Shown: positions 1,880 to 51,261 of the stretch, one piece after another
Numbering within the stretch: position 1 is the stretch's first letter
Layout of the letters: each line of letters starts with the position of its first letter
Assembly (NCBI GenBank): GCA_964620965.1
Contig: CAZUHV010000003.1
Location: 226,093 to 290,092, forward strand
From: an uncultured Pseudomonadales bacterium
GTDB lineage: Bacteria; Patescibacteriota; Microgenomatia; UBA1400; PJMF01
DNA length: 64,000 nucleotides
Direction of reading: 5' to 3'
Program-made: the position numbers and the translations under genes
The notes under the pieces: model-generated
What the model saw: the letters and a program-made list of their open reading frames with translations, nothing else
Database searches by the model: none
Told to the model about the DNA's origin: nothing

Positions 1880-3604
1880 ATGTTTAACGTTTATAAAAAA
1901 TACTACCAGTTTTTATGGCACTATAAGTGGCAAATGATTTTGTTCACATTCTTTTTAGTGGCATTATCTATTTCTGAATCTGTGTTACCTTATTTTTACA
2001 AACTCTTTATAGATGCAATCCCACAAATGGATCCAGTTTTGTTGCTCAAAATTTTAGTTGGGTATATTGGAATTAGATTACTTAAGCTTGCATTTGATTT
2101 AGCAACTTTCTTTTTGGGAGATAGTGCTTTACTTGCTACTGCAAGAGATATTCGTCAGGCAGTGTTCAAAAAGATTCAAGATTTAGATTTTGCTTACCAC
2201 CTTACAAAAAGCACTGGTTCTATGATCTCATCAATCAAGCGTGGTGATTTGGCGGTGTTTAACTTTTTTCATATGGTAAACATCAACCTTGTTCGTGGTT
2301 TGATCAGTTTCATAGTTTTACTCGTTTTATTTGCACAACTTAAAATTGAGATTGCCGGTTTGATGTTGTTATCAATGGTCTTAAACTCAGTTTTTGCCTA
2401 CTTCTTGATTAAAAGAAATGTTGCTGCGCGTGTTGCATTTAATAAGAGTGAAGATGATGTTTCTGAGGTTATTGTTGATAACTTAATTAACTTTGAGACA
2501 GTGAAATTTTTTGCAAAAGAGAAAGAAGAGTATCTCAGACTTGGTGGTTCTTTTGTTCCTTGGATGAAAGCTCTTTGGGGATATGCAAACTCATTTAGAG
2601 CAATTGATGTTGTAATTGGGGTCACTGGAAATATGAGCATGCTTGCCGTTTTGTATCTTGGTTTAAGATACCTTCTAAGTGGTGAGTTTTCTGCTGGTGA
2701 ATATGTGATGATACTTGGATTTGTGAATACCTTTTATGGCAGATTCTTTGATTTGGTTTTTGAAATGCGTGATGTTGCAAAAAACAATGCTGATTTGAAA
2801 TCTTATTTTAGTGTGTTTAATAAAGATACTTTAGTTCAGGATCCAAAAAATCCTATTTCAGTTGCATCCGTTGAAGGTGAAATTGTGTTTGATAGTGTTA
2901 ATTTTTCTTATCCAGAAGGTAGGTCTGATGCATTAAAAGACTTTACCTTTAAGATCAATCCTGGAGAATCTATTGCATTAGTTGGCCATTCTGGAGCTGG
3001 AAAGACAACAATAACAAAGCTGTTGATGCGTTTTTATGATGTCGAGAGTGGCGCAATTTTGATTGATGGGGTGAATATTAAGGATATGACAAAATCAAAT
3101 CTTCGTTCATTTATGGGAATAGTTCCTCAAGAACCAGTTTTATTTAATGAATCAATTGCATACAACATTGGGTATGGTGCTGGCACTACAGATTTAGAAG
3201 TCATCAAAAAAGCTGCGCAAATGGCAAACTTAGATGAATTTATTTCTGATTTACCAAAAGGCTATGATACTAAAGTTGGTGAGCGTGGTGTGAGATTGTC
3301 TGGAGGACAAAAGCAGAGATTAGCGATTGCTCGTATGATTTTATCAAACCCAGATATCATTATTTTTGATGAAGCAACAAGCCAGTTAGATAGTCAATCT
3401 GAAAAATTGATACAAGATGCATTTTGGAAAGTTTCTAAGAATAAAACAACTTTGATTATTGCTCACAGATTATCTTCAATCACTAAAGCAGATAAGATTG
3501 TTGTGATGGAAAATGGACAGATTGCAGAAGTTGGTACTCATAAATCGTTGTTAGCTAAAAAAGGTTTGTACTCAAAATTCTGGAAGTTGCAGACTGTTGG
3601 TTAA
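1880..3604 (+). CDS. ABC transporter, fused permease/ATP-binding protein (MsbA/lipid A- or multidrug-exporter type)
   Basis: 574 aa with six N-terminal TM helices, then Walker A GHSGAGKTT, ABC signature LSGGQKQR, Walker B IIIFDEATSQLD and H-loop IAHRL. Confidence 0.85.
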   Translation: MFNVYKKYYQFLWHYKWQMILFTFFLVALSISESVLPYFYKLFIDAIPQMDPVLLLKILVGYIGIRLLKLAFDLATFFLGDSALLATARDIRQAVFKKIQDLDFAYHLTKSTGSMISSIKRGDLAVFNFFHMVNINLVRGLISFIVLLVLFAQLKIEIAGLMLLSMVLNSVFAYFLIKRNVAARVAFNKSEDDVSEVIVDNLINFETVKFFAKEKEEYLRLGGSFVPWMKALWGYANSFRAIDVVIGVTGNMSMLAVLYLGLRYLLSGEFSAGEYVMILGFVNTFYGRFFDLVFEMRDVAKNNADLKSYFSVFNKDTLVQDPKNPISVASVEGEIVFDSVNFSYPEGRSDALKDFTFKINPGESIALVGHSGAGKTTITKLLMRFYDVESGAILIDGVNIKDMTKSNLRSFMGIVPQEPVLFNESIAYNIGYGAGTTDLEVIKKAAQMANLDEFISDLPKGYDTKVGERGVRLSGGQKQRLAIARMILSNPDIIIFDEATSQLDSQSEKLIQDAFWKVSKNKTTLIIAHRLSSITKADKIVVMENGQIAEVGTHKSLLAKKGLYSKFWKLQTVG

Positions 3605-23718: not shown

Positions 23719-23883
23719 ATGCTTGGAAAATTTTTAGAAAAATTTGTAAAAGCATTCCCATATTTCTTAGGGGGAGGAATGTTGGGACTGCTGTTCCTAG
23801 TATTCCTGGAGGTATTTTTTAATAGTCTTCCAGGATTTGGAACAACAACGGTGGTTATCTATCTACCGTTGGTTTTTAAATAA
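23719..23883 (+). CDS. Small membrane protein (54 aa), hypothetical
   Basis: AAGGTGA SD 7 nt upstream of the ATG, two hydrophobic segments and an extended -10 (TGTATAAT) upstream. Too short to appear in the ORF track. Confidence 0.4.
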   Translation: MLGKFLEKFVKAFPYFLGGGMLGLLFLVFLEVFFNSLPGFGTTTVVIYLPLVFK

Positions 23884-44841: not shown

Positions 44842-45609
44842 ATGAGGCGTAGAGAAAAATTTGTTGTTGCATCAATTATTTCAACACTTGGTTTACTTGG
44901 TGTGCAGTATGTTACTCTAGATATTAGATATATCGCAATCGCGATTTTTGTTGTGTTTACTTATCTTATTTCTACTTGGGCGCTTGCTGATGACTTGCAG
45001 CTACACGAGAGGGTGACTATAATTCCATTTCCGTCTTTATTTGCCGCAGCTGTATCTTTGTTTTATTTCTTATTACCTGAAAGCTTTTTTTCACAATTAG
45101 TGATAGTTTTGTTATTTGGTGTTGGCATGTATGCGATTTATTTAACGGCAAACATTTTTTCTGTAGCAAAAGGTAGAACAATTCAGCTAGTACATGCGGC
45201 TAACGCCATAGCAGGTATTTTTGGTGTTTTTATTTCTTTGCTACTGTCTAATACAATTTTTTCCTTAAAATTACCGTTTTATTTTAATATGTTGCTTGTT
45301 GGTTTGGTTCATTTTCCTCTGGTATTTATGTTGCTTTGGTCGGTGAATTTAGAAAACAGAGTTGAACGTGACATCATAGGTTTTTCGCTTGTTTTAACCT
45401 TAGTCTTGATGGAGCTTGCACTTATTTTGTCATTTTTTCCTTTGGGAGTCTGGTTTTATGCCTTGTTTATTATGTCATTTTTCTATATCGGGATTGGTTT
45501 AATGCAGAGCTTTATCAGAGGCAGACTCTTTGTTCGTACTCTGGTGGAGTACTCTTTAGTAGCCATTTTTATTGGCTTGATGTTTTTGGGCGCAGTTCCA
45601 TTTAAGTAG
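44842..45609 (+). CDS. Integral membrane protein, hypothetical
   Basis: 255 aa with about 8 hydrophobic helices and no motif. Confidence 0.45.
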   Translation: MRRREKFVVASIISTLGLLGVQYVTLDIRYIAIAIFVVFTYLISTWALADDLQLHERVTIIPFPSLFAAAVSLFYFLLPESFFSQLVIVLLFGVGMYAIYLTANIFSVAKGRTIQLVHAANAIAGIFGVFISLLLSNTIFSLKLPFYFNMLLVGLVHFPLVFMLLWSVNLENRVERDIIGFSLVLTLVLMELALILSFFPLGVWFYALFIMSFFYIGIGLMQSFIRGRLFVRTLVEYSLVAIFIGLMFLGAVPFK

Positions 45610-45934
45610 GGTTTTCTTTATTTTCTAATATAGCTTCTTCTGTAGGCTAAAACTTATTGTTTTTGAAAGTTTTTATCAGGAGAAGAGAATAGTAAGCCTG
45701 GTAGGGCCTAATAACATCCTATAATATGTGAGGAGTAGACAGGGGTAGTTTAGCCTGTTTGCTCCTGGAAAAGCATAGTGGAATTAAAAGTTGTAAATCT
45801 TGAGGATCTTCAGTATGGTCTTGAAATATTTTATATTTAAATAAAATTTACACGATAAAACAAGAATTTTTAAAGAAAAACTAGAGAAGAGGGGTCAAAA
45901 ATTTTTTATATGTACCAGGCGGAGAAGGGAGAAG

Positions 45935-45974
45935 TGATATAGTTTGATACAGTATAAATGATATAGTTTGATAT
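45935..45974 (+). repeat. Iteron-like direct repeat: TGATATAGTTTGATA(C/T) twice, with 24-bp spacing
   Basis: 16-nt copies at 45935-45950 and 45959-45974 inside the non-coding part of the accessory segment. A perfect DnaA box (TGTGGATAA = TTATCCACA on the complement) lies 22 bp downstream at 45996-46004. Confidence 0.5.
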
Positions 45975-46939
45975 AGAGTAGAGGCCTATAATAAATGTGG
46001 ATAACTTTAAACTTATAGGACTTATTTATTAAACATTTAGCCTGGTATAAAGGGCGAGAAATGTATTTTTTGTTTTAAGCTTTCAGGAATATGCAAGAAT
46101 AATTTTGAGCCTCAAGCCTGGTGGTGGAGAGTGTTCTGTTTCAGACATATATGCCTGGAATTTTTTATTTCTAGGTGTGTCGTGAAAAGAGTGTGAAAAA
46201 GAATAAAACCCGAATGTGTTTTTCGGCATATTGAGTAAAAAAAGTCATTTTTGCGAGAGACCCAAGAGAGGTAATTTTGCCAGAGTACACAGAGAGCTAA
46301 AAGGGACGAGCACTACTGTTCTTAGTACAGTGATGTACCATGTATTTCAAAAATGCAATGAGCCACAACCGTCTCATTCTCTCTTTGTGAGTGGGGTATG
46401 ATTTTTCGATTTGCATTATGTCGCACAATATTACTTTTACGACGTAAACTAAAATTTTAAGATTGGAGTAGTTTTAGCAGTTCTTTTATTATTTCTCTAT
46501 ATATCCGGGCAATTTTTAGTATTTATTTATTTTTATTCTTTTTTTATCTTTTTAATTCTCTGTTTGCTTGTCTCTCATATAATTTATTTTTTTGCGATTT
46601 TCACTATTATCGTTTTCTTAAATTTTGGAAACTTTATGATTTTTTCTTGTGAGTTTGTCAATCTATTTATTAACTATGTTTTGATTGCATTTGAGGCTAT
46701 TTGAGCCTCTTAAAACCGGTTTTTTAATGAATACTAAGCCGTTTGTACAATAAAAAGCCGTTTTTGAGCCTCTGACATGTTTTAGCCTGGTAGACTTGTT
46801 AATTTTGGTGATTTTGGCGTTAAAATGAGTATTTTTAAACGGTTTTAGTAAAATTTCTTTCAATGTGTAGTAAAAAATGCTTTCTAACTATTTTTTTGTG
46901 GTACAATCCTTTAAAACTTTTAAAAAAGGAGTTTTTGAT

Positions 46940-47389
46940 ATGCAACTGACACATAGTTTAGAAACTGGCGAAAAAAGAAATTTTAACGAGGTGCGAACTT
47001 GTGAACGAAGAAATCTTTTGGCAAGAAGGCTTGATAAGCAATCAGGAAGATTCAAGCGTATGTGGGCTTTGCATAAGGAGCATTTAAGGCTTAGAAATAT
47101 AAATGAAGCTCAGGAACAAAAGGAATTAGTTTTCGATTCTTTATATGAATTTTTAATTCAGGTTTATGACGCTGGTTTATTGATTTATCCAGAAGTAAAT
47201 ATGGAGTTTGCGGACAACTTTACTGAAGATCTCTTCGCCTGGTTTGCACTCACTTTAGGTTTAATTGAGCAGGATGAAATTGCAGAGATGGCTGGGTATA
47301 TTACTCGAAAAATTGAGGAAACTATTCCAGGCAATCTTGTTGTTGCGGATTTAGGGTTATCTTCTACAACCATTGTAAATTTGAATTAA
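46940..47389 (+). CDS. Hypothetical protein (150 aa) with a basic N-terminus and acidic C-terminal half, island-encoded
   Basis: AGGAG SD 8 nt upstream of the ATG at 46940. No recognisable domain. Confidence 0.5.
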   Translation: MQLTHSLETGEKRNFNEVRTCERRNLLARRLDKQSGRFKRMWALHKEHLRLRNINEAQEQKELVFDSLYEFLIQVYDAGLLIYPEVNMEFADNFTEDLFAWFALTLGLIEQDEIAEMAGYITRKIEETIPGNLVVADLGLSSTTIVNLN

Positions 47390-47601
47390 CTTTTAACTAG
47401 ACTTTTTTGTGTCGCAAAATAATTTTACATTTTCCTCCAAAAAGCTTTAAAGGTTGTTTTTTTCTGTAATTAATTGGAGCCTTGATTTTAGGACTCTTAC
47501 TTAAGGACTCCCCTCTTATACTGCTGGGGGAGAGATCAAGTAAAATTTAGAATTCATTATATTTATGAAAAATCTATCTGAAAGAGTAAGGTCTTCTATA
47601 G

Positions 47602-47934
47602 TTATAGCTCCTGAAGTTTCGAAAGATATTTTTCAACAAGTTCCTCAAAGATCGCTTTGAAAGTTTTTTGGAAGGAACTCCCCTCCTTTGATAAAAGTGA
47701 GTTTATTTTAGTATTGAATGTTTCAAGATCTGTTTCTGACTCGATATTCTGAATTTCTGCAGGAATATCCTCAGATTTGAATTGTTCTTCCATGTTTTCC
47801 GGCTTGGTAATTTCTAAAGCTTGCATTAAGGCGGATGAAATGAGCATAGATAATCCTAGTTGGATGTCTTTTTGGTCAATACCTTTTTCTGTTGCTATTT
47901 CTTGTATACTAGTGAGGTTTTGTTGAATGTTCAT
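47602..47934 (-). CDS. Small acidic helical hypothetical protein (110 aa), second gene of a two-gene minus-strand cassette
   Basis: Follows the upstream gene after a 7-nt gap, which fits an operon. Highly acidic and predicted alpha-helical. Confidence 0.5.
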   Translation of the reverse strand: MNIQQNLTSIQEIATEKGIDQKDIQLGLSMLISSALMQALEITKPENMEEQFKSEDIPAEIQNIESETDLETFNTKINSLLSKEGSSFQKTFKAIFEELVEKYLSKLQEL

Positions 47935-47941
47935 AGGTTTT

Positions 47942-48394
47942 TTAATTAATATTTGTTACCTGATTTATTAGATGTGGAATAAAGCTGGCTCCCATTGAAT
48001 GACCCATCATAACGATTTGATAGGTTGCATACCATAATGCTGCTCTAGCTACGTACCTTGTTTTATCATGGTTCTTAAAGAATATTCCAGGAAGTACCCA
48101 TCCTGCTGCCGCGCCAAAAATTCCAATGAGTCCTGGTAGTCCCCAAATTTCTATATTGTGCAGTAGCTCTCTTAATTTTTCACCAAGAGTTCCAATGTCT
48201 ACTCCAGGAATTGGTTCACCAAGCTTATTAATTTGGTTAAACATTCCTGCTAAAAACATTGCACTGAGTTGCTTTGAATGATGTTCTGGTAAGACATCTA
48301 GAGCTGCTTGAACAGCCGCAGGAATGTTTGCTTCAACCTCTAAGTTATCAGTTGTTTCATTTAAATTTGTTAGGTCTGTAAATTCTCTATTCAT
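47942..48394 (-). CDS. Hypothetical protein (150 aa) with a glycine-zipper-like membrane segment (GLPGLIGIFGAAAGWVLPGIFF)
   Basis: Soluble N-terminal region, then a GxxxG-rich hydrophobic helix, then a Trp/Tyr/His/Met-rich C-terminus. First gene of the cassette. Confidence 0.5.
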   Translation of the reverse strand: MNREFTDLTNLNETTDNLEVEANIPAAVQAALDVLPEHHSKQLSAMFLAGMFNQINKLGEPIPGVDIGTLGEKLRELLHNIEIWGLPGLIGIFGAAAGWVLPGIFFKNHDKTRYVARAALWYATYQIVMMGHSMGASFIPHLINQVTNIN

Positions 48395-48775
48395 GTTTTC
48401 AGTGTATCACATTTTTACAAATTTTATTTTATGTCGCAAAAAAATAATGTATTTGCTATACTGCTTCTTAGTAATTGATTTTTTGTTCCTTAAAAATACT
48501 TTGAAGTAGAAGCAGAGTTTGAAACTATAGTTGCATAGCGCTCTACTCTATTCTTATAAAAAATAAAGTTGCTTAAAGATTTTGTAAAGTCCTTTTTTTA
48601 AAATAAATATATACTAAGTATATCAAAGTATATCTAAATATATATAATAAAAAGCATTGATTTAGCAACATTTATTGTTTTAAACACAAATTAGCAGTAT
48701 TTACTATTGTCTGCTAAAAACTCATAGTATTTTGTCATATAAAAAATCATATAGTCGAGGTGAAATATATACTTT

Positions 48776-49711
48776 ATGGCACTTTCAACAAATCCTCACA
48801 AGGCTTTATTGACTTTTGTAGAACATTTAGAAGTTGAGCGTAATGTAAGCCGTTTAACAATTCGAAATTACTCTCATTATTTGAGACGTTTTAACGATTG
48901 GTTTTTAAATGAAGGTCACAAAGATTTAAAAGAATTGGACCAAGATATTGTAAGAAGTTATCGTGTATATTTGTCACGATTTGTTGATGATGTTGGAAGA
49001 ACTTTGTCAAAAAAAACTCAAAGTTATTACATCATTGCGCTTCGTTCTTTGCTCAAATTTATGGTAAAAAATGATGCTCCAGTTTTGCATCCAGAAAAAA
49101 TTGATTTGCCAAAAGCAGAATCTCAACACATGAAATTTTTGAATTTGGAACGTATTGAAAGACTCCTCAATCAGCCGCTACTTTCACAAAAAGGTGGGCT
49201 TCGTGATAAAGCAATTTTGGAAGTTTTATTTTCGACAGGCTTGCGTGTCAGTGAATTAGTTGGATTGAATCGTGATCAAATCGATATTGAAAAACGCGAG
49301 TTTGGAGTGATTGGTAAAGGTCGTAGACCACGTGTAGTTTTTCTGAGTGAACGTGCTGCATATTGGTTAGATAAGTATATGAACTCTCGTTCTGATAATT
49401 GGGACCCTGTGTTTATTAGATATTCTGGAACCAAGCCGGAGCTTTTGGCCGATGGTGAAGAGATGCGTTTAACTACTAGAAGTGTGCAACGCTTGGTAGA
49501 CAAGTATTGTAGAAAAGCAAAATTGCCAATCAAGATTAGCCCTCATGGTATTAGACATAGTTTTGCCACTGATTTATTGAGTAATGGAGCTTCGCTAAGA
49601 GATGTTCAAGAGATGTTGGGACACAAAAATATTGCTACAACGCAGATTTACACCCATGTCACCAGGCCAGAATTAAGAAAATCTCACGAAAAACACCATT
49701 CTGGGTTATAG
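48776..49711 (+). CDS. Tyrosine site-specific recombinase (XerC/XerD / phage-integrase family)
   Basis: N-terminal core-binding (SAM-like) domain and a C-terminal catalytic domain with R...HxxR...Y (GLRVSEL; HGIRHSFATDLL; TTQIYTHV). GAGGTGA SD upstream. Confidence 0.85.
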   Translation: MALSTNPHKALLTFVEHLEVERNVSRLTIRNYSHYLRRFNDWFLNEGHKDLKELDQDIVRSYRVYLSRFVDDVGRTLSKKTQSYYIIALRSLLKFMVKNDAPVLHPEKIDLPKAESQHMKFLNLERIERLLNQPLLSQKGGLRDKAILEVLFSTGLRVSELVGLNRDQIDIEKREFGVIGKGRRPRVVFLSERAAYWLDKYMNSRSDNWDPVFIRYSGTKPELLADGEEMRLTTRSVQRLVDKYCRKAKLPIKISPHGIRHSFATDLLSNGASLRDVQEMLGHKNIATTQIYTHVTRPELRKSHEKHHSGL

Positions 49712-50036
49712 ATTTGTTAAGATTTGAGACAGTTTATTTGTTTTGTTGATTTTTTATGAGTGTGTTTTTTGGAAGATTCGCTTTTTTTAATTAATTCCAG
49801 AAAATAGTTCTTCTTCTTTTAGATCTTTATCTATATCAAAAAGTAAATTAAGATATAAAAATATATAGGATTTTAACCTAAATTAGCACTTTTAGCCTGG
49901 ATTTCTCCCCTTCTCTGCTGTGCTTTGGGTTAAATTGTTAGTGATATACTTTAAATTATTATTTGCTATTTTGATATATAGTTATGGGATTTTAAGATGA
50001 GAGCTTTGCAAGAATAAAATGGTTAAAAGGGTTTTT

Positions 50037-50059
50037 CCCCCGCACATTTAGTGCGGGGG
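50037..50059. other. Perfect 9-bp GC-rich inverted repeat (CCCCCGCAC-attta-GTGCGGGGG), a terminator or protein-binding hairpin
   Basis: Lies between the recombinase gene and the small peptide gene. Weak T-run (gttttct) on the plus side. Confidence 0.5.
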
Positions 50060-50076
50060 AAGTTTTCTAAAAAAGA

Positions 50077-50196
50077 TTAGTTACCAGCTTGTGCGAGGAC
50101 TTGTGCTACAGCTATACCAAGAGGTATAACCACAACAACAACTACGACCAGGCAAACAAACATGGCAACTGCAGCTTTGGCTATAAAAGTACCCAT
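50077..50196 (-). CDS. 39-aa ultra-hydrophobic single-TM peptide (MGTFIAKAAVAMFVCLVVVVVVVIPLGIAVAQVLAQAGN), a candidate small membrane toxin or small membrane protein
   Basis: Strong AAGGTGA SD 5 nt upstream of the ATG. Not in the ORF track because it is below the 60-aa threshold. Followed on the minus strand by the GC hairpin. Confidence 0.45.
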   Translation of the reverse strand: MGTFIAKAAVAMFVCLVVVVVVVIPLGIAVAQVLAQAGN

Positions 50197-50484
50197 TGCA
50201 ATCACCTTTTTTTTGAATTTCTCCAAGAATTACGCTTTCGCCACTCGGAGTGAAGTTATCTCTATTTGATATTCGGATCGCGTAGACCCGACATCCTCAT
50301 AGAGATGCTCAAAAAACCAGACTTTAGTTTCTTAAGGATCTCTATGCAAGAAGCTCTGTTAATGTGCAATTAAAACTACTTTATCAGTAATTATGAGACA
50401 TATCAATAGTTTTTTGCTTAAATGTGGGTCTCTCCTCGTTGTGTTTTTGAGGCAACTTGGGTAACATATGCAGTATACAGAAAT

Positions 50485-50558
50485 GGGCCTGTAGCGCAGC
50501 TGGTTAGCGCGTTTGTATGGCATACAAAAGGTCAGGGGTTCGAATCCCCTCAGGTCCA
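50485..50558 (+). tRNA. tRNA-Ala (anticodon GGC)
   Basis: Hand-folded cloverleaf: acceptor GGGCCTG/CAGGTCC with the G3:U70 pair characteristic of tRNA-Ala, D-arm GCGC-AGCTGGTTA-GCGC, anticodon stem TTTGT/ACAAA with loop ATGGCAT (GGC), T-arm AGGGG-TTCGAAT-CCCCT and discriminator A. Confidence 0.85.
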
Positions 50559-50705
50559 CAAAAATTTTTTGATATAAAATACTTGAATTTCTTCAAAAGT
50601 CTTTTGATTACTCTTGCGTTTTCTTTGAGGTTTACTCTTTGATAAGAGTGGCTTATGTGGACTTGTTTGTTATTTATTGCAAAAAAAGGTATTTAAATGG
50701 CAAAA

Positions 50706-50731
50706 GGCCGGGTAAACCCGGCCTTTTTTTT
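50706..50731 (+). terminator. Rho-independent terminator (GGCCGGG-taaa-CCCGGCC + T8), partly bidirectional
   Basis: Perfect 7-bp GC stem followed by tttttttt on the plus strand. Four A's precede it, giving a weaker minus-strand function for the downstream small membrane protein gene. Confidence 0.7.
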
Positions 50732-50760: not shown

Positions 50761-51000
50761 CTAATAACGTCCTGTCCTGCTACGCAGGAACAGAAATATT
50801 CCAATAAAAATGATTCCACAGACTGCTATACCGATTTTCTCCAGTATATTCAGAGTGGGAACTGTTAAAAATCCGCAAATTCCCAACATAATTCCTAATA
50901 GGATTATGGCGAACATATTTCGCATTCTGACTACAGCCCAAGAATTCACGGTTGTGCCACTACTGTGGCTTGCCATTTGTCGACCTTGTGAGTCTTTCAT
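50761..51000 (-). CDS. Small two-TM membrane protein, hypothetical
   Basis: AAGGGTGA SD 6 nt upstream of the internal ATG (MKDSQGRQ...). Two hydrophobic helices. Confidence 0.45.
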   Translation of the reverse strand: MKDSQGRQMASHSSGTTVNSWAVVRMRNMFAIILLGIMLGICGFLTVPTLNILEKIGIAVCGIIFIGIFLFLRSRTGRY

Positions 51001-51261
51001 TTTTTCACCCTTATAATTAGATATAGATTTTGTTGACAAAATTCCCCAAGAGGGGGTGAATAATCAAATTAGCTGATCTAATGGGCATGGGAAAAGTCGC
51101 GTTGACTTTCTTATCCCTCTAGGGCCTTTTTAATTATTCGCTACTCCTGGAGATCTGTTCAATTTTTAATGTGCTTTGCATTCTTTCAAATGTAACTAAA
51201 TTATCCTATAATATGATAATTTTGTCAATGATTAAAAGGCTAAATCGTAGTAATATCATAG

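Follow-up and report, generated by a model that had tools for sequence, protein, structure and literature searches.

The 64-kb window analyzed here (64,000 nt of contig CAZUHV010000003.1, to which all coordinates refer unless another sequence is named) comes from the low-GC chromosome of a Pacebacteria-like member of the Patescibacteria. Between a gene for a Xer-type tyrosine recombinase (48776–49711, plus strand, identified by Pfam matches) and a tRNA-Ala(GGC) gene (50485–50559, plus strand) lies a minus-strand cassette of ~420 bp (about 50016–50435), which is the subject of this report. Along the minus strand, the cassette is organized as a promoter, a leader of ~170 nt, a Shine–Dalgarno (SD) sequence with an ATG, a small hydrophobic open reading frame (ORF), a short 3′ untranslated region (3′UTR) and a GC-rich hairpin, termed H1. 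Homologous cassettes number four, in three genomes and at the same site: the window copy, two tandem copies (c1 and c2) in the closest relative L003 (BroJett025), and one in L115/L116, which are two Logan assemblies. The window flanks match the xer–tRNA spacers of the cassette-free relatives L102, L104, L112, L117, L140 and L143, where an ancestral promoter-like element is followed by the tRNA promoter and the tRNA; the insert was therefore delimited to about 50016–50435, its insertion point lying between the ancestral plus-strand promoter and the proximal promoter of tRNA-Ala.

The ORF (50196→50077, minus strand) comprises 39 codons and encodes an ultra-hydrophobic peptide with a single transmembrane (TM) segment (MGTFIAKAAVAMFVCLVVVVVVVIPLGIAVAQVLAQAGN, 39 residues including seven consecutive Val). 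Its SD, AAGGUGA (AAGGTGA in the DNA; 50208→50202), is preceded by an A-rich tract and separated from the ATG by 5 nt (TTGCA); the GGUGA core is present in all four cassettes, with spacers of 5–8 nt. Re-reading of the sequence confirmed these start signals and the seven-valine frame, as called in a first-pass annotation made from the DNA letters. An alternative in-frame TTG at 50226 would give a product of 49 residues; it sits within leader helix P4 and lacks an SD. Only four ATG-initiated ORFs of 20–70 residues with a strong SD occur in the 64-kb window, and the one at 50077–50196 has by a wide margin the highest hydropathy among them (mean Kyte–Doolittle value of 3.31 over 18 residues vs 2.18 for the runner-up). 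Perfect GC-rich hairpins of at least 9 bp are found at two places in the window, the mean in random sequence from a first-order Markov model being 0.03. The ORF together with its hairpin is far above chance expectation.

Positional homologues of the peptide, of 50, 30 and 33 residues, are encoded in L003 (c1 and c2) and L115. Despite near-total sequence turnover, the SD, the ATG and an open single-TM frame of 30–50 codons stand in the same place in 4/4 cassettes. BLAST comparison of the window with L003 reflects this turnover: homology runs through the leader as far as the ATG, is interrupted by the ORF and returns at the hairpin and flanks. Between c2 and L115, homology of the peptides is clear (z = 8.1), and their divergence is of coding type, with pN (0.41) below pS (0.71) and identities of 15, 19 and 11 of 29 at the first, second and third codon positions (2 > 1 > 3). 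Conservation as a coding frame, the lack of which had been named as grounds for refutation, is seen in the c2/L115 pair and in the SD, ATG and ORF kept in all four copies; frame, start signals and coding-type substitution mark a genuine small coding gene, to which the window ORF is linked by positional homologues only. A resemblance noted by eye between the window and c1 peptides (AVAQVLAQAGN vs AVSQFFTANPGG) was rejected (z = 0.95). A tblastn search with the window peptide, as earlier recommended, recovered the identical contigs but no further homologue across 82 loci, and a word-indexed search of 5.8 billion proteins returned no match to it. As anticipated, automated annotation had missed the gene: no call is made at the ORF on identical Logan contigs, and an exact-sequence look-up among 153 billion gene positions holds no record of its product. 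The peptide falls in the size class of type I toxins (<60 residues, hydrophobic, one TM helix), its sister peptides measuring 30–50 residues. Taken together, the ORF is very probably a real gene for a small single-TM peptide, judging from the four-copy comparison, and it is probably translated.

Upstream of the ORF, a promoter scan identified a sigma-70-like promoter on the minus strand (50406→50378; TTGATA-17 nt-TAAAGT, with TG upstream of the −10 element), placing the predicted start of the peptide mRNA near 50371. In the other cassettes, a minus-strand site upstream of the leader is likewise the best promoter match of its region (TTGACA-17-TAGAAT in L003 and TTTACA-17-TATAAT in L115, 11/12 each). 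The intervening 175 nt (50197–50371, minus strand) constitute a structured 5′ leader, delineated by four-copy alignments and a covariance model. It opens with the motif GCACAUUAACA (50367→50357) and contains helices P1 (50346–50338 with 50306–50298), P1b (50336–50325 with 50319–50308), which carries the invariant CUUAAGA, P3 with an inner and an outer part (50295–50285 with 50279–50268), and P4 (50250–50244 with 50227–50221). A further segment, C (50265–50258), is an alternative partner of the P1 3′ strand, with which it would form helix P2. P1 (A:B) and P2 (B:C) share strand B and are mutually exclusive, and both pair in all four copies; the P2 alternative makes no contact with the SD and is short in c1 (6 bp) and L115 (5 bp).

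Many compensatory changes preserve the pairing of P1, P1b, P3 and P4 across the four copies. The covariance model R1, built from the window, c2 and c1 copies, finds the L115 element with 35.9 bits (E = 7e-5 in 1 Mb), for which nhmmer gave E = 1.3. In the model alignment, 94.4% of the cells are paired and 11/32 pairs show double changes, a level that none of 500 shuffles reached (0/500); slid registers of the same alignment pair to only 37–45%. The predicted fold of the mRNA has a free energy of −119.8 kcal/mol (z = −7.15), so that the fold prediction proposed for the 5′ region of the mRNA did reveal a structured leader, conserved on the ORF strand. Many of the leader pairs, one of them invariant, are G·U pairs valid on the minus strand only. 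The segment 50226–50480, which had been put forward as a possible antitoxin RNA, therefore represents the 5′ leader and promoter of the peptide mRNA in the sense orientation, and the antitoxin assignment was rejected.

At the other end of the cassette, H1 (50035–50061; UUCCCCCGCAC-UAAAU-GUGCGGGGGAA) can form on either strand and is conserved in all four cassettes. On the plus strand its perfect 9-bp core reads CCCCCGCAC-ATTTA-GTGCGGGGG (50037–50059), in agreement with the perfect GC hairpin reported beside the ORF, and extends to 11–12 bp (50034–50062). Compensatory changes across the four copies keep its pairing, which upholds the view that the hairpin is a structured part of the same unit. 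Its two strands differ in what follows: on the plus strand, GTTTTCT comes next and gives H1 the appearance of an intrinsic terminator, whereas on the minus strand H1 is followed by AAAAACCC without a U-tract, and the mRNA strand past the hairpin is A-rich in the window and c2. As c1 and L115 carry their own canonical minus-strand terminators downstream of H1, the hairpin is not simply the terminator of the mRNA. On the opposite strand, every copy has H1 or another stop-adjacent hairpin followed by a T-tract, the end of which is only a few nucleotides from the stop codon (flagged by the scan tool in the window, c1 and L115, and read from the sequence in c2).

Partition-function calculations link the two ends of the mRNA. 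For the window, c2 and L115 (3/4 copies), the thermodynamic ensemble gives the SD its highest pairing probability with a pyrimidine motif in the 3′UTR just ahead of H1; in the window, this tract together with the stop codon spans 50062–50079 on the minus strand (UAAUCUUUUUUAGAAAAC). A compensatory change accompanies the predicted pairing, from AAGG:CCUU in c2 to GAGG:CCUC in L115. When the 3′UTR segment was shuffled, the observed pairing of the SD was matched by 7/100 shuffles for the window, 3/100 for c2 and 4/100 for L115.

Transcription from the plus strand was considered next to that of the mRNA. A promoter-like site, TTAAGA-17-TAAAAT (49992–50020), points into H1 and is conserved among relatives, whether or not they carry the cassette; their version, read directly from the sequences, is TTAAGG-N17(TTTGCRRGAA)-TAnnnT. 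Sites of this kind lie 30–90 nt upstream of H1 both in the window and in L115 (1827–1855 of that locus; TTTGCA-17-TAAAAT). If the ancestral promoter is used, it would yield a convergent RNA of ~40 nt (about 50027–50070) that is antisense to the 3′ end of the mRNA. Because the promoter is older than the cassette, the role of H1 may be no more than to shield the ORF from antisense transcripts. A Sok- or IsoA-like antisense RNA over the 5′ end was also considered and rejected, there being no conserved plus-strand promoter in the ORF or start region. Promoter use and terminator function on the plus strand are predicted features throughout. Further along, TTGTGT-17-TAACAT (50439–50467, plus strand; read from the sequence and below the scan threshold) is the likely proximal promoter of tRNA-Ala, with the motif TTGTTT-17-TAAAAT/TAGAAT at the same position in L003, L115, L117, L140 and L143. 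Expression of the tRNA would then be independent of read-through across the cassette.

An 11-nt direct repeat also spans this region on the plus strand (CTTTGCAAGAA at 50004–50014 and CTATGCAAGAA at 50342–50352), each copy being preceded by TTAAGR. The first copy falls within the ancestral promoter, upstream of H1 and immediately beyond the cassette boundary; the second belongs to the leader, where it sits at the base of P1. The repeat may be a scar left by recombination during the insertion, may provide complementarity between a small RNA and the mRNA, or may have arisen by chance.

The distribution of the cassette is patchy, as relatives at 88–93% Xer identity do not carry it. L115 and L116 have 0 differences over the ~400-nt cassette, compared with 13 in 200 nt of the left flank and 4 in 50 nt of the right flank, an identity that may reflect either constraint or recent spread. 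Of two degenerate-pattern scans of JGI metagenomes, one gave 0 matches and the other 18 chance matches, partly in coding regions; a viral pattern scan likewise yielded chance matches only. With the covariance model, no new copy was found in ~1 Mb of the relatives' xer neighbourhoods and 13 further contigs, and no SD-preceded hydrophobic small ORF was seen in other xer–tRNA gaps (20 of 25 listed gaps scanned, up to L042). The cassette as a unit, the structure and strand of its leader, its hairpin and the positional conservation of the SD and TM ORF are established by sequence comparison. We are highly confident that the cassette is real, is expressed, encodes a small membrane peptide and has a leader RNA that is both conserved and new.

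As to function, we favor, at a probability of roughly 0.4, a type I toxin-like system: a self-contained ~420-bp cassette for a small membrane-inserting peptide whose expression is restrained by mRNA folding. In this scheme, the sigma-70-like promoter (50406→50378) would produce an mRNA of ~340 nt, whose 175-nt leader would fold into P1/P1b, P3 and P4 ahead of the strong SD and the 39-codon ORF. In the full-length RNA, the 3′UTR pyrimidine tract would pair with the SD and keep translation quiet until processing or refolding, and H1 would cap and stabilize the 3′ end. On the opposite strand, H1 would act as an intrinsic terminator that stops transcripts from the ancestral plus-strand promoter, the outcome being either a short convergent antisense RNA as candidate antitoxin or plain insulation of the ORF from read-through. 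Toxicity and membrane targeting of the peptide are properties that we only infer. The same assignment had been made in the first-pass annotation, and the leader, the predicted SD–3′UTR pairing in 3/4 copies, the tandem copies in L003 and the stop-adjacent opposite-strand terminator add to its plausibility, whereas homology to a known family is lacking. Likewise, the likeness drawn to peptides of the Hok/Fst/TisB class is borne out in size, single-TM topology and hydrophobicity but not in homology, either to these or to other families.

Several observations weigh against this interpretation. Pfam gave 0 families at E ≤ 1 for the window peptide and at E ≤ 10 for the other three, NCBIfam and PHROGs returned sub-threshold noise only for the cassette peptides and no toxin family, and Rfam recognized only tRNA at its gathering threshold, with no toxin or antitoxin family at E ≤ 10. 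A full HMMER search of 1.84 billion representative proteins produced 0 matches to the window peptide, which also has no significant similarity to the other three cassette peptides. The peptide tails are neutral, whereas many type I toxins end in a charged C-terminal tail. Promoter scans of the cassettes detected no conserved plus-strand promoter over the leader, ORF or start region, and the plus-strand promoter that does exist is older than the cassette, being present in cassette-free relatives. SD–3′UTR pairing is absent from c1 by the same prediction, and in the other copies it is a thermodynamic prediction made on AU-rich sequence. The leader covariation statistics come from four sequences with an alignment fitted to the model. 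Finally, the known copies are four, from one narrow clade of three near-identical lineages, and the statistics and reach of the analysis are limited accordingly.

None of the models for Hok/Gef, Fst, TisB, Ldr, Ibs, ShoB, TxpA/BsrG or AapA, nor the corresponding RNA families, recognizes the cassette; a weak match to CbdX (E = 0.01) scores 15.6 bits vs a cut-off of 57. The convergent RNAs of par (fst RNA I/RNA II of Enterococcus pAD1) share a common terminator hairpin and carry direct repeats for 5′ complementarity. The 11-nt direct repeat of the window, with one copy upstream of H1 and one in the leader, is reminiscent of that arrangement; however, H1 of the window is not bidirectional, the repeat is part of a promoter spacer and possibly untranscribed, a two-copy 11-nt repeat can be due to chance, and the window peptide does not match the Fst Pfam family.

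Closer precedents exist for individual parts of the architecture. SD sequestration, which is predicted for the cassette, is known from aapA1/IsoA1 of Helicobacter pylori, which encodes a hydrophobic peptide of ~30 residues and whose full-length mRNA is inactive through 5′–3′ pairing that sequesters the SD (PMC5416894). Alternative or metastable 5′ helices, multi-copy loci and a family recognized by mRNA structure rather than by peptide are further parallels. IsoA1, in contrast, is antisense to the 5′ leader and start, for which the cassette has no conserved promoter, and neither sequence nor Rfam similarity connects the two. In bsrG/SR4, txpA/RatA and sprG/SprF, toxin and antitoxin RNAs are convergent and overlap at their 3′ ends (PMC8309996), an arrangement that the stop-adjacent opposite-strand hairpin and T-tract of the cassettes resemble. 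The overlap in the window would be only ~40 nt, however, mostly hairpin, its promoter is ancestral, and there is no homology. The hok/sok, tisB/istR-1, zorO/orzO, dinQ/agrB and shoB/ohsC systems have single-TM peptides and long structured 5′UTRs that block translation of the primary transcript, and zorO also provides a precedent for tandem duplication (PMC8309996); zor and ldr are in this respect like the L003 cassettes. Unlike the candidate RNA proposed here, their antitoxins overlap the 5′ region or are divergent, and no equivalent was found in the cassettes; nor do the Hok_Gef, TisB, Ldr and Ibs models show homology to the cassette peptides.

A broader claim is that the locus represents the first type I toxin–antitoxin-like system in Patescibacteria (candidate phyla radiation): a new family that evolves fast and is set apart by its mRNA architecture (a novel structured leader, long-distance SD–3′UTR pairing and a conserved 3′ hairpin), with a very short convergent antitoxin RNA made by a captured host promoter and ended by H1, in a tiny mobile or duplicating unit at an xer–tRNA-Ala hotspot. 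A full-text search found no paper naming type I systems together with Patescibacteria; as a whole, we regard this claim as doubtful.

The foremost alternative, to which we assign a substantial though minority likelihood, is an ordinary non-toxic small membrane protein with a regulatory or accessory role, such as a modulator of a transporter or sensor kinase, whose structured leader would tune mRNA stability or translation with no antitoxin involved. H1 would then stabilize the 3′ end of the mRNA and stop transcripts arriving from xer and the ancestral promoter. All evidence for a real gene fits this explanation equally well, and the neutral tails, the age of the plus-strand promoter and the failure of the cassette promoter scans to support an antisense RNA speak in its favor. 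To our knowledge, most small hydrophobic bacterial proteins that have been described are not toxins. MgtS, AcrZ and CydX are regulatory small membrane proteins, conserved in sequence and usually linked to the operon or regulon of a partner. The cassette peptide is like them in size, in its single TM helix and in having been overlooked by annotation, but its sequence turns over freely and it is encoded by a stand-alone cassette. Near-complete variability of the peptide between copies, while the RNA parts are kept, would be unusual for a protein with a specific partner, and no linked partner gene is available, since the cassette stands alone between xer and the tRNA. Tandem duplication, patchy presence within a clade of at least 93% Xer identity and the predicted sequestration of the SD by the 3′UTR likewise count against a non-toxic protein.

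The leader might instead be a cis-regulator that senses a ligand or condition, riboswitch-like or as a thermosensor, by switching between P1 (A:B) and P2 (B:C). That these exclusive helices pair in every copy, and that the loop motif CUUAAGA and an invariant G·U are conserved, would suit such a switch, and a leader without an Rfam match would then be a new class. A riboswitch would combine an aptamer with an expression platform, but the P1/P2 alternatives avoid the SD and form no terminator, leaving no visible expression platform, and no Rfam riboswitch matches. P2 shrinks to 6 and 5 bp in c1 and L115, segments A and C may be a small duplication, and the family is too narrow for a ligand pocket to be recognized; we consider a sensing leader unlikely. 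Less likely still is a non-coding transcript with an incidental ORF. The leader and H1 are better conserved than the ORF sequence, and the window peptide has no homologue, as this would predict; it is countered by the SD, ATG and uninterrupted hydrophobic ORF of 30–50 codons in 4/4 copies, by the coding-type substitution between c2 and L115, and by the rarity of strong-SD small ORFs (four in 64 kb). A chance ORF beside a terminator of xer can be practically dismissed: the hairpin does read as a plus-strand terminator downstream of xer, but cassette-free relatives have no such hairpin after xer, and each of the four cassettes, the internal one of the tandem included, has it together with the ORF and leader; the chance expectation for such a hairpin is 0.03 per window. 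Even jointly, these last two explanations are highly improbable.

The genomic setting argues for a chromosomal hotspot rather than a mobile island. Relatives of the Xer protein were found in abundance (592 in genome contigs; 4064 proteins at E ≤ 1e-100), the nearest being 94% identical and named XerD by NCBI and JGI. At 59–94% identity it occurs in more than 80 Patescibacteria, with tRNA-Ala downstream in relatives without the insert. The first-pass annotation had taken the recombinase for an integrase and its position next to a tRNA for a typical site of island addiction modules. This was rejected: the enzyme is a conserved chromosomal Xer of housekeeping type, syntenic with tRNA-Ala across Patescibacteria, and the island argument therefore fails as stated. 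A repeat search found no att-like repeat of the tRNA, and the features of an island addiction module, namely a mobile-island integrase inserted at a tRNA, are absent. In relatives, the xer–tRNA-Ala gap ranges from 58 to 2626 nt and differs in content, a comparison that identifies it as a variable hotspot for gene gain. Unrelated ORFan genes reside there, of 501 residues in L004 (1748–3253) and 329 residues in L106 (3950–4939), neither with a Pfam match, and many short-read contigs stop at or inside this tRNA-Ala.

On the far side of tRNA-Ala lies the other perfect GC-rich hairpin of the window (50702–50727; AAAAGGCCGGGT-aa-ACCCGGCCTTTT), with A- and T-runs on its sides. This hairpin forms a bidirectional terminator that separates tRNA-Ala (plus strand) from a 92-residue membrane ORF (50761–51039, minus strand), is conserved in L003, and gives several Rfam small-RNA matches, all sub-threshold. 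At the corresponding place just past tRNA-Ala, L140 encodes a 64-residue Flp-type pilin-like protein (2228–2422, minus strand; …GQGLFEYAMILILVGIAVVV…), to which the 92-residue ORF of the window is unrelated. Another small hydrophobic ORF, of 54 residues (23719–23883, plus strand; MLGKFLEKFVKAFPYFLGGGMLGLLFLVFLEVFFNSLPGFGTTTVVIYLPLVFK, with SD AAAGGTGAT), precedes tRNA-Leu by ~450 nt; Pfam has no match to it, and it is unrelated to the cassette and appears to be unannotated.

Upstream of xer, a 28-bp invariant island resembles a dif site (46418–46445, plus strand; ATGTCGCACAA-TATTAC-TTTTACGACGT, 11+6+11, with near-perfect inverted arms). Conserved across Patescibacteria, it is present at 57 distinct xer-linked loci (for example L003 4786–4813), always 0.5–6 kb upstream of xer and in the same orientation, with flanks that are not conserved. 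Recombinase and island look like a single-recombinase Xer/dif pair, judging from this linkage. Such an organization is known for XerS/difSL, a single recombinase with its site linked to its gene (PMC1914069). Insertion of the cassette by Xer at a dif-like site was rejected, as its flanks carry no dif-like arm; so was a location of the cassette at the replication terminus, there being no GC-skew turn. The cumulative GC skew does not turn at the dif-like island either, so that a terminus location is unsupported there too.

A half-site corresponding to the left arm, ATGTCGCA[AC]AATAT, occurs at 48431–48444 (plus strand), about 280–350 nt upstream of xer, with equivalents in L104, L106, L112 and L006 and, inverted, in L008, L019 and L020. 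It could serve Xer autoregulation or be a scar of Xer-dependent insertions; the number of half-sites in the window is not above chance. The segment between full site and half-site holds ORFan genes that differ between relatives. In the window (46877–48394), these encode 170, 110 and 150 residues, two of them without a Pfam match at E ≤ 1 and the third with sub-threshold matches only. Preceding them, 1.27 kb (45610–46876) contain no ORF of at least 90 residues and may represent an extended non-coding region. Conservation in close relatives covers about 930 nt of this stretch (45860–46800) at 68–72%, and distant relatives retain short islands (45915–45980 and the dif-like site). The GC skew reaches +0.40 at 45600–46200, a perfect DnaA-box-like TGTGGATAA is found at about 45997–46005, a TAGCCTGGTA-like motif recurs, and Rfam gave no match on 45610–46876.

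The very narrow distribution of the cassette, three genomes, sets a practical limit on its use, and within it the cassette is recognizable from RNA architecture alone in an uncultured lineage with a reduced genome. The covariance model R1 obtained here can be applied to other genomes. A toxic peptide would be a membrane-active effector or a stabilizing element for organisms with a host-attached way of life. Were the peptide not toxic, the cassette would still constitute a new small-protein gene and a new structured leader that annotation pipelines have missed entirely.

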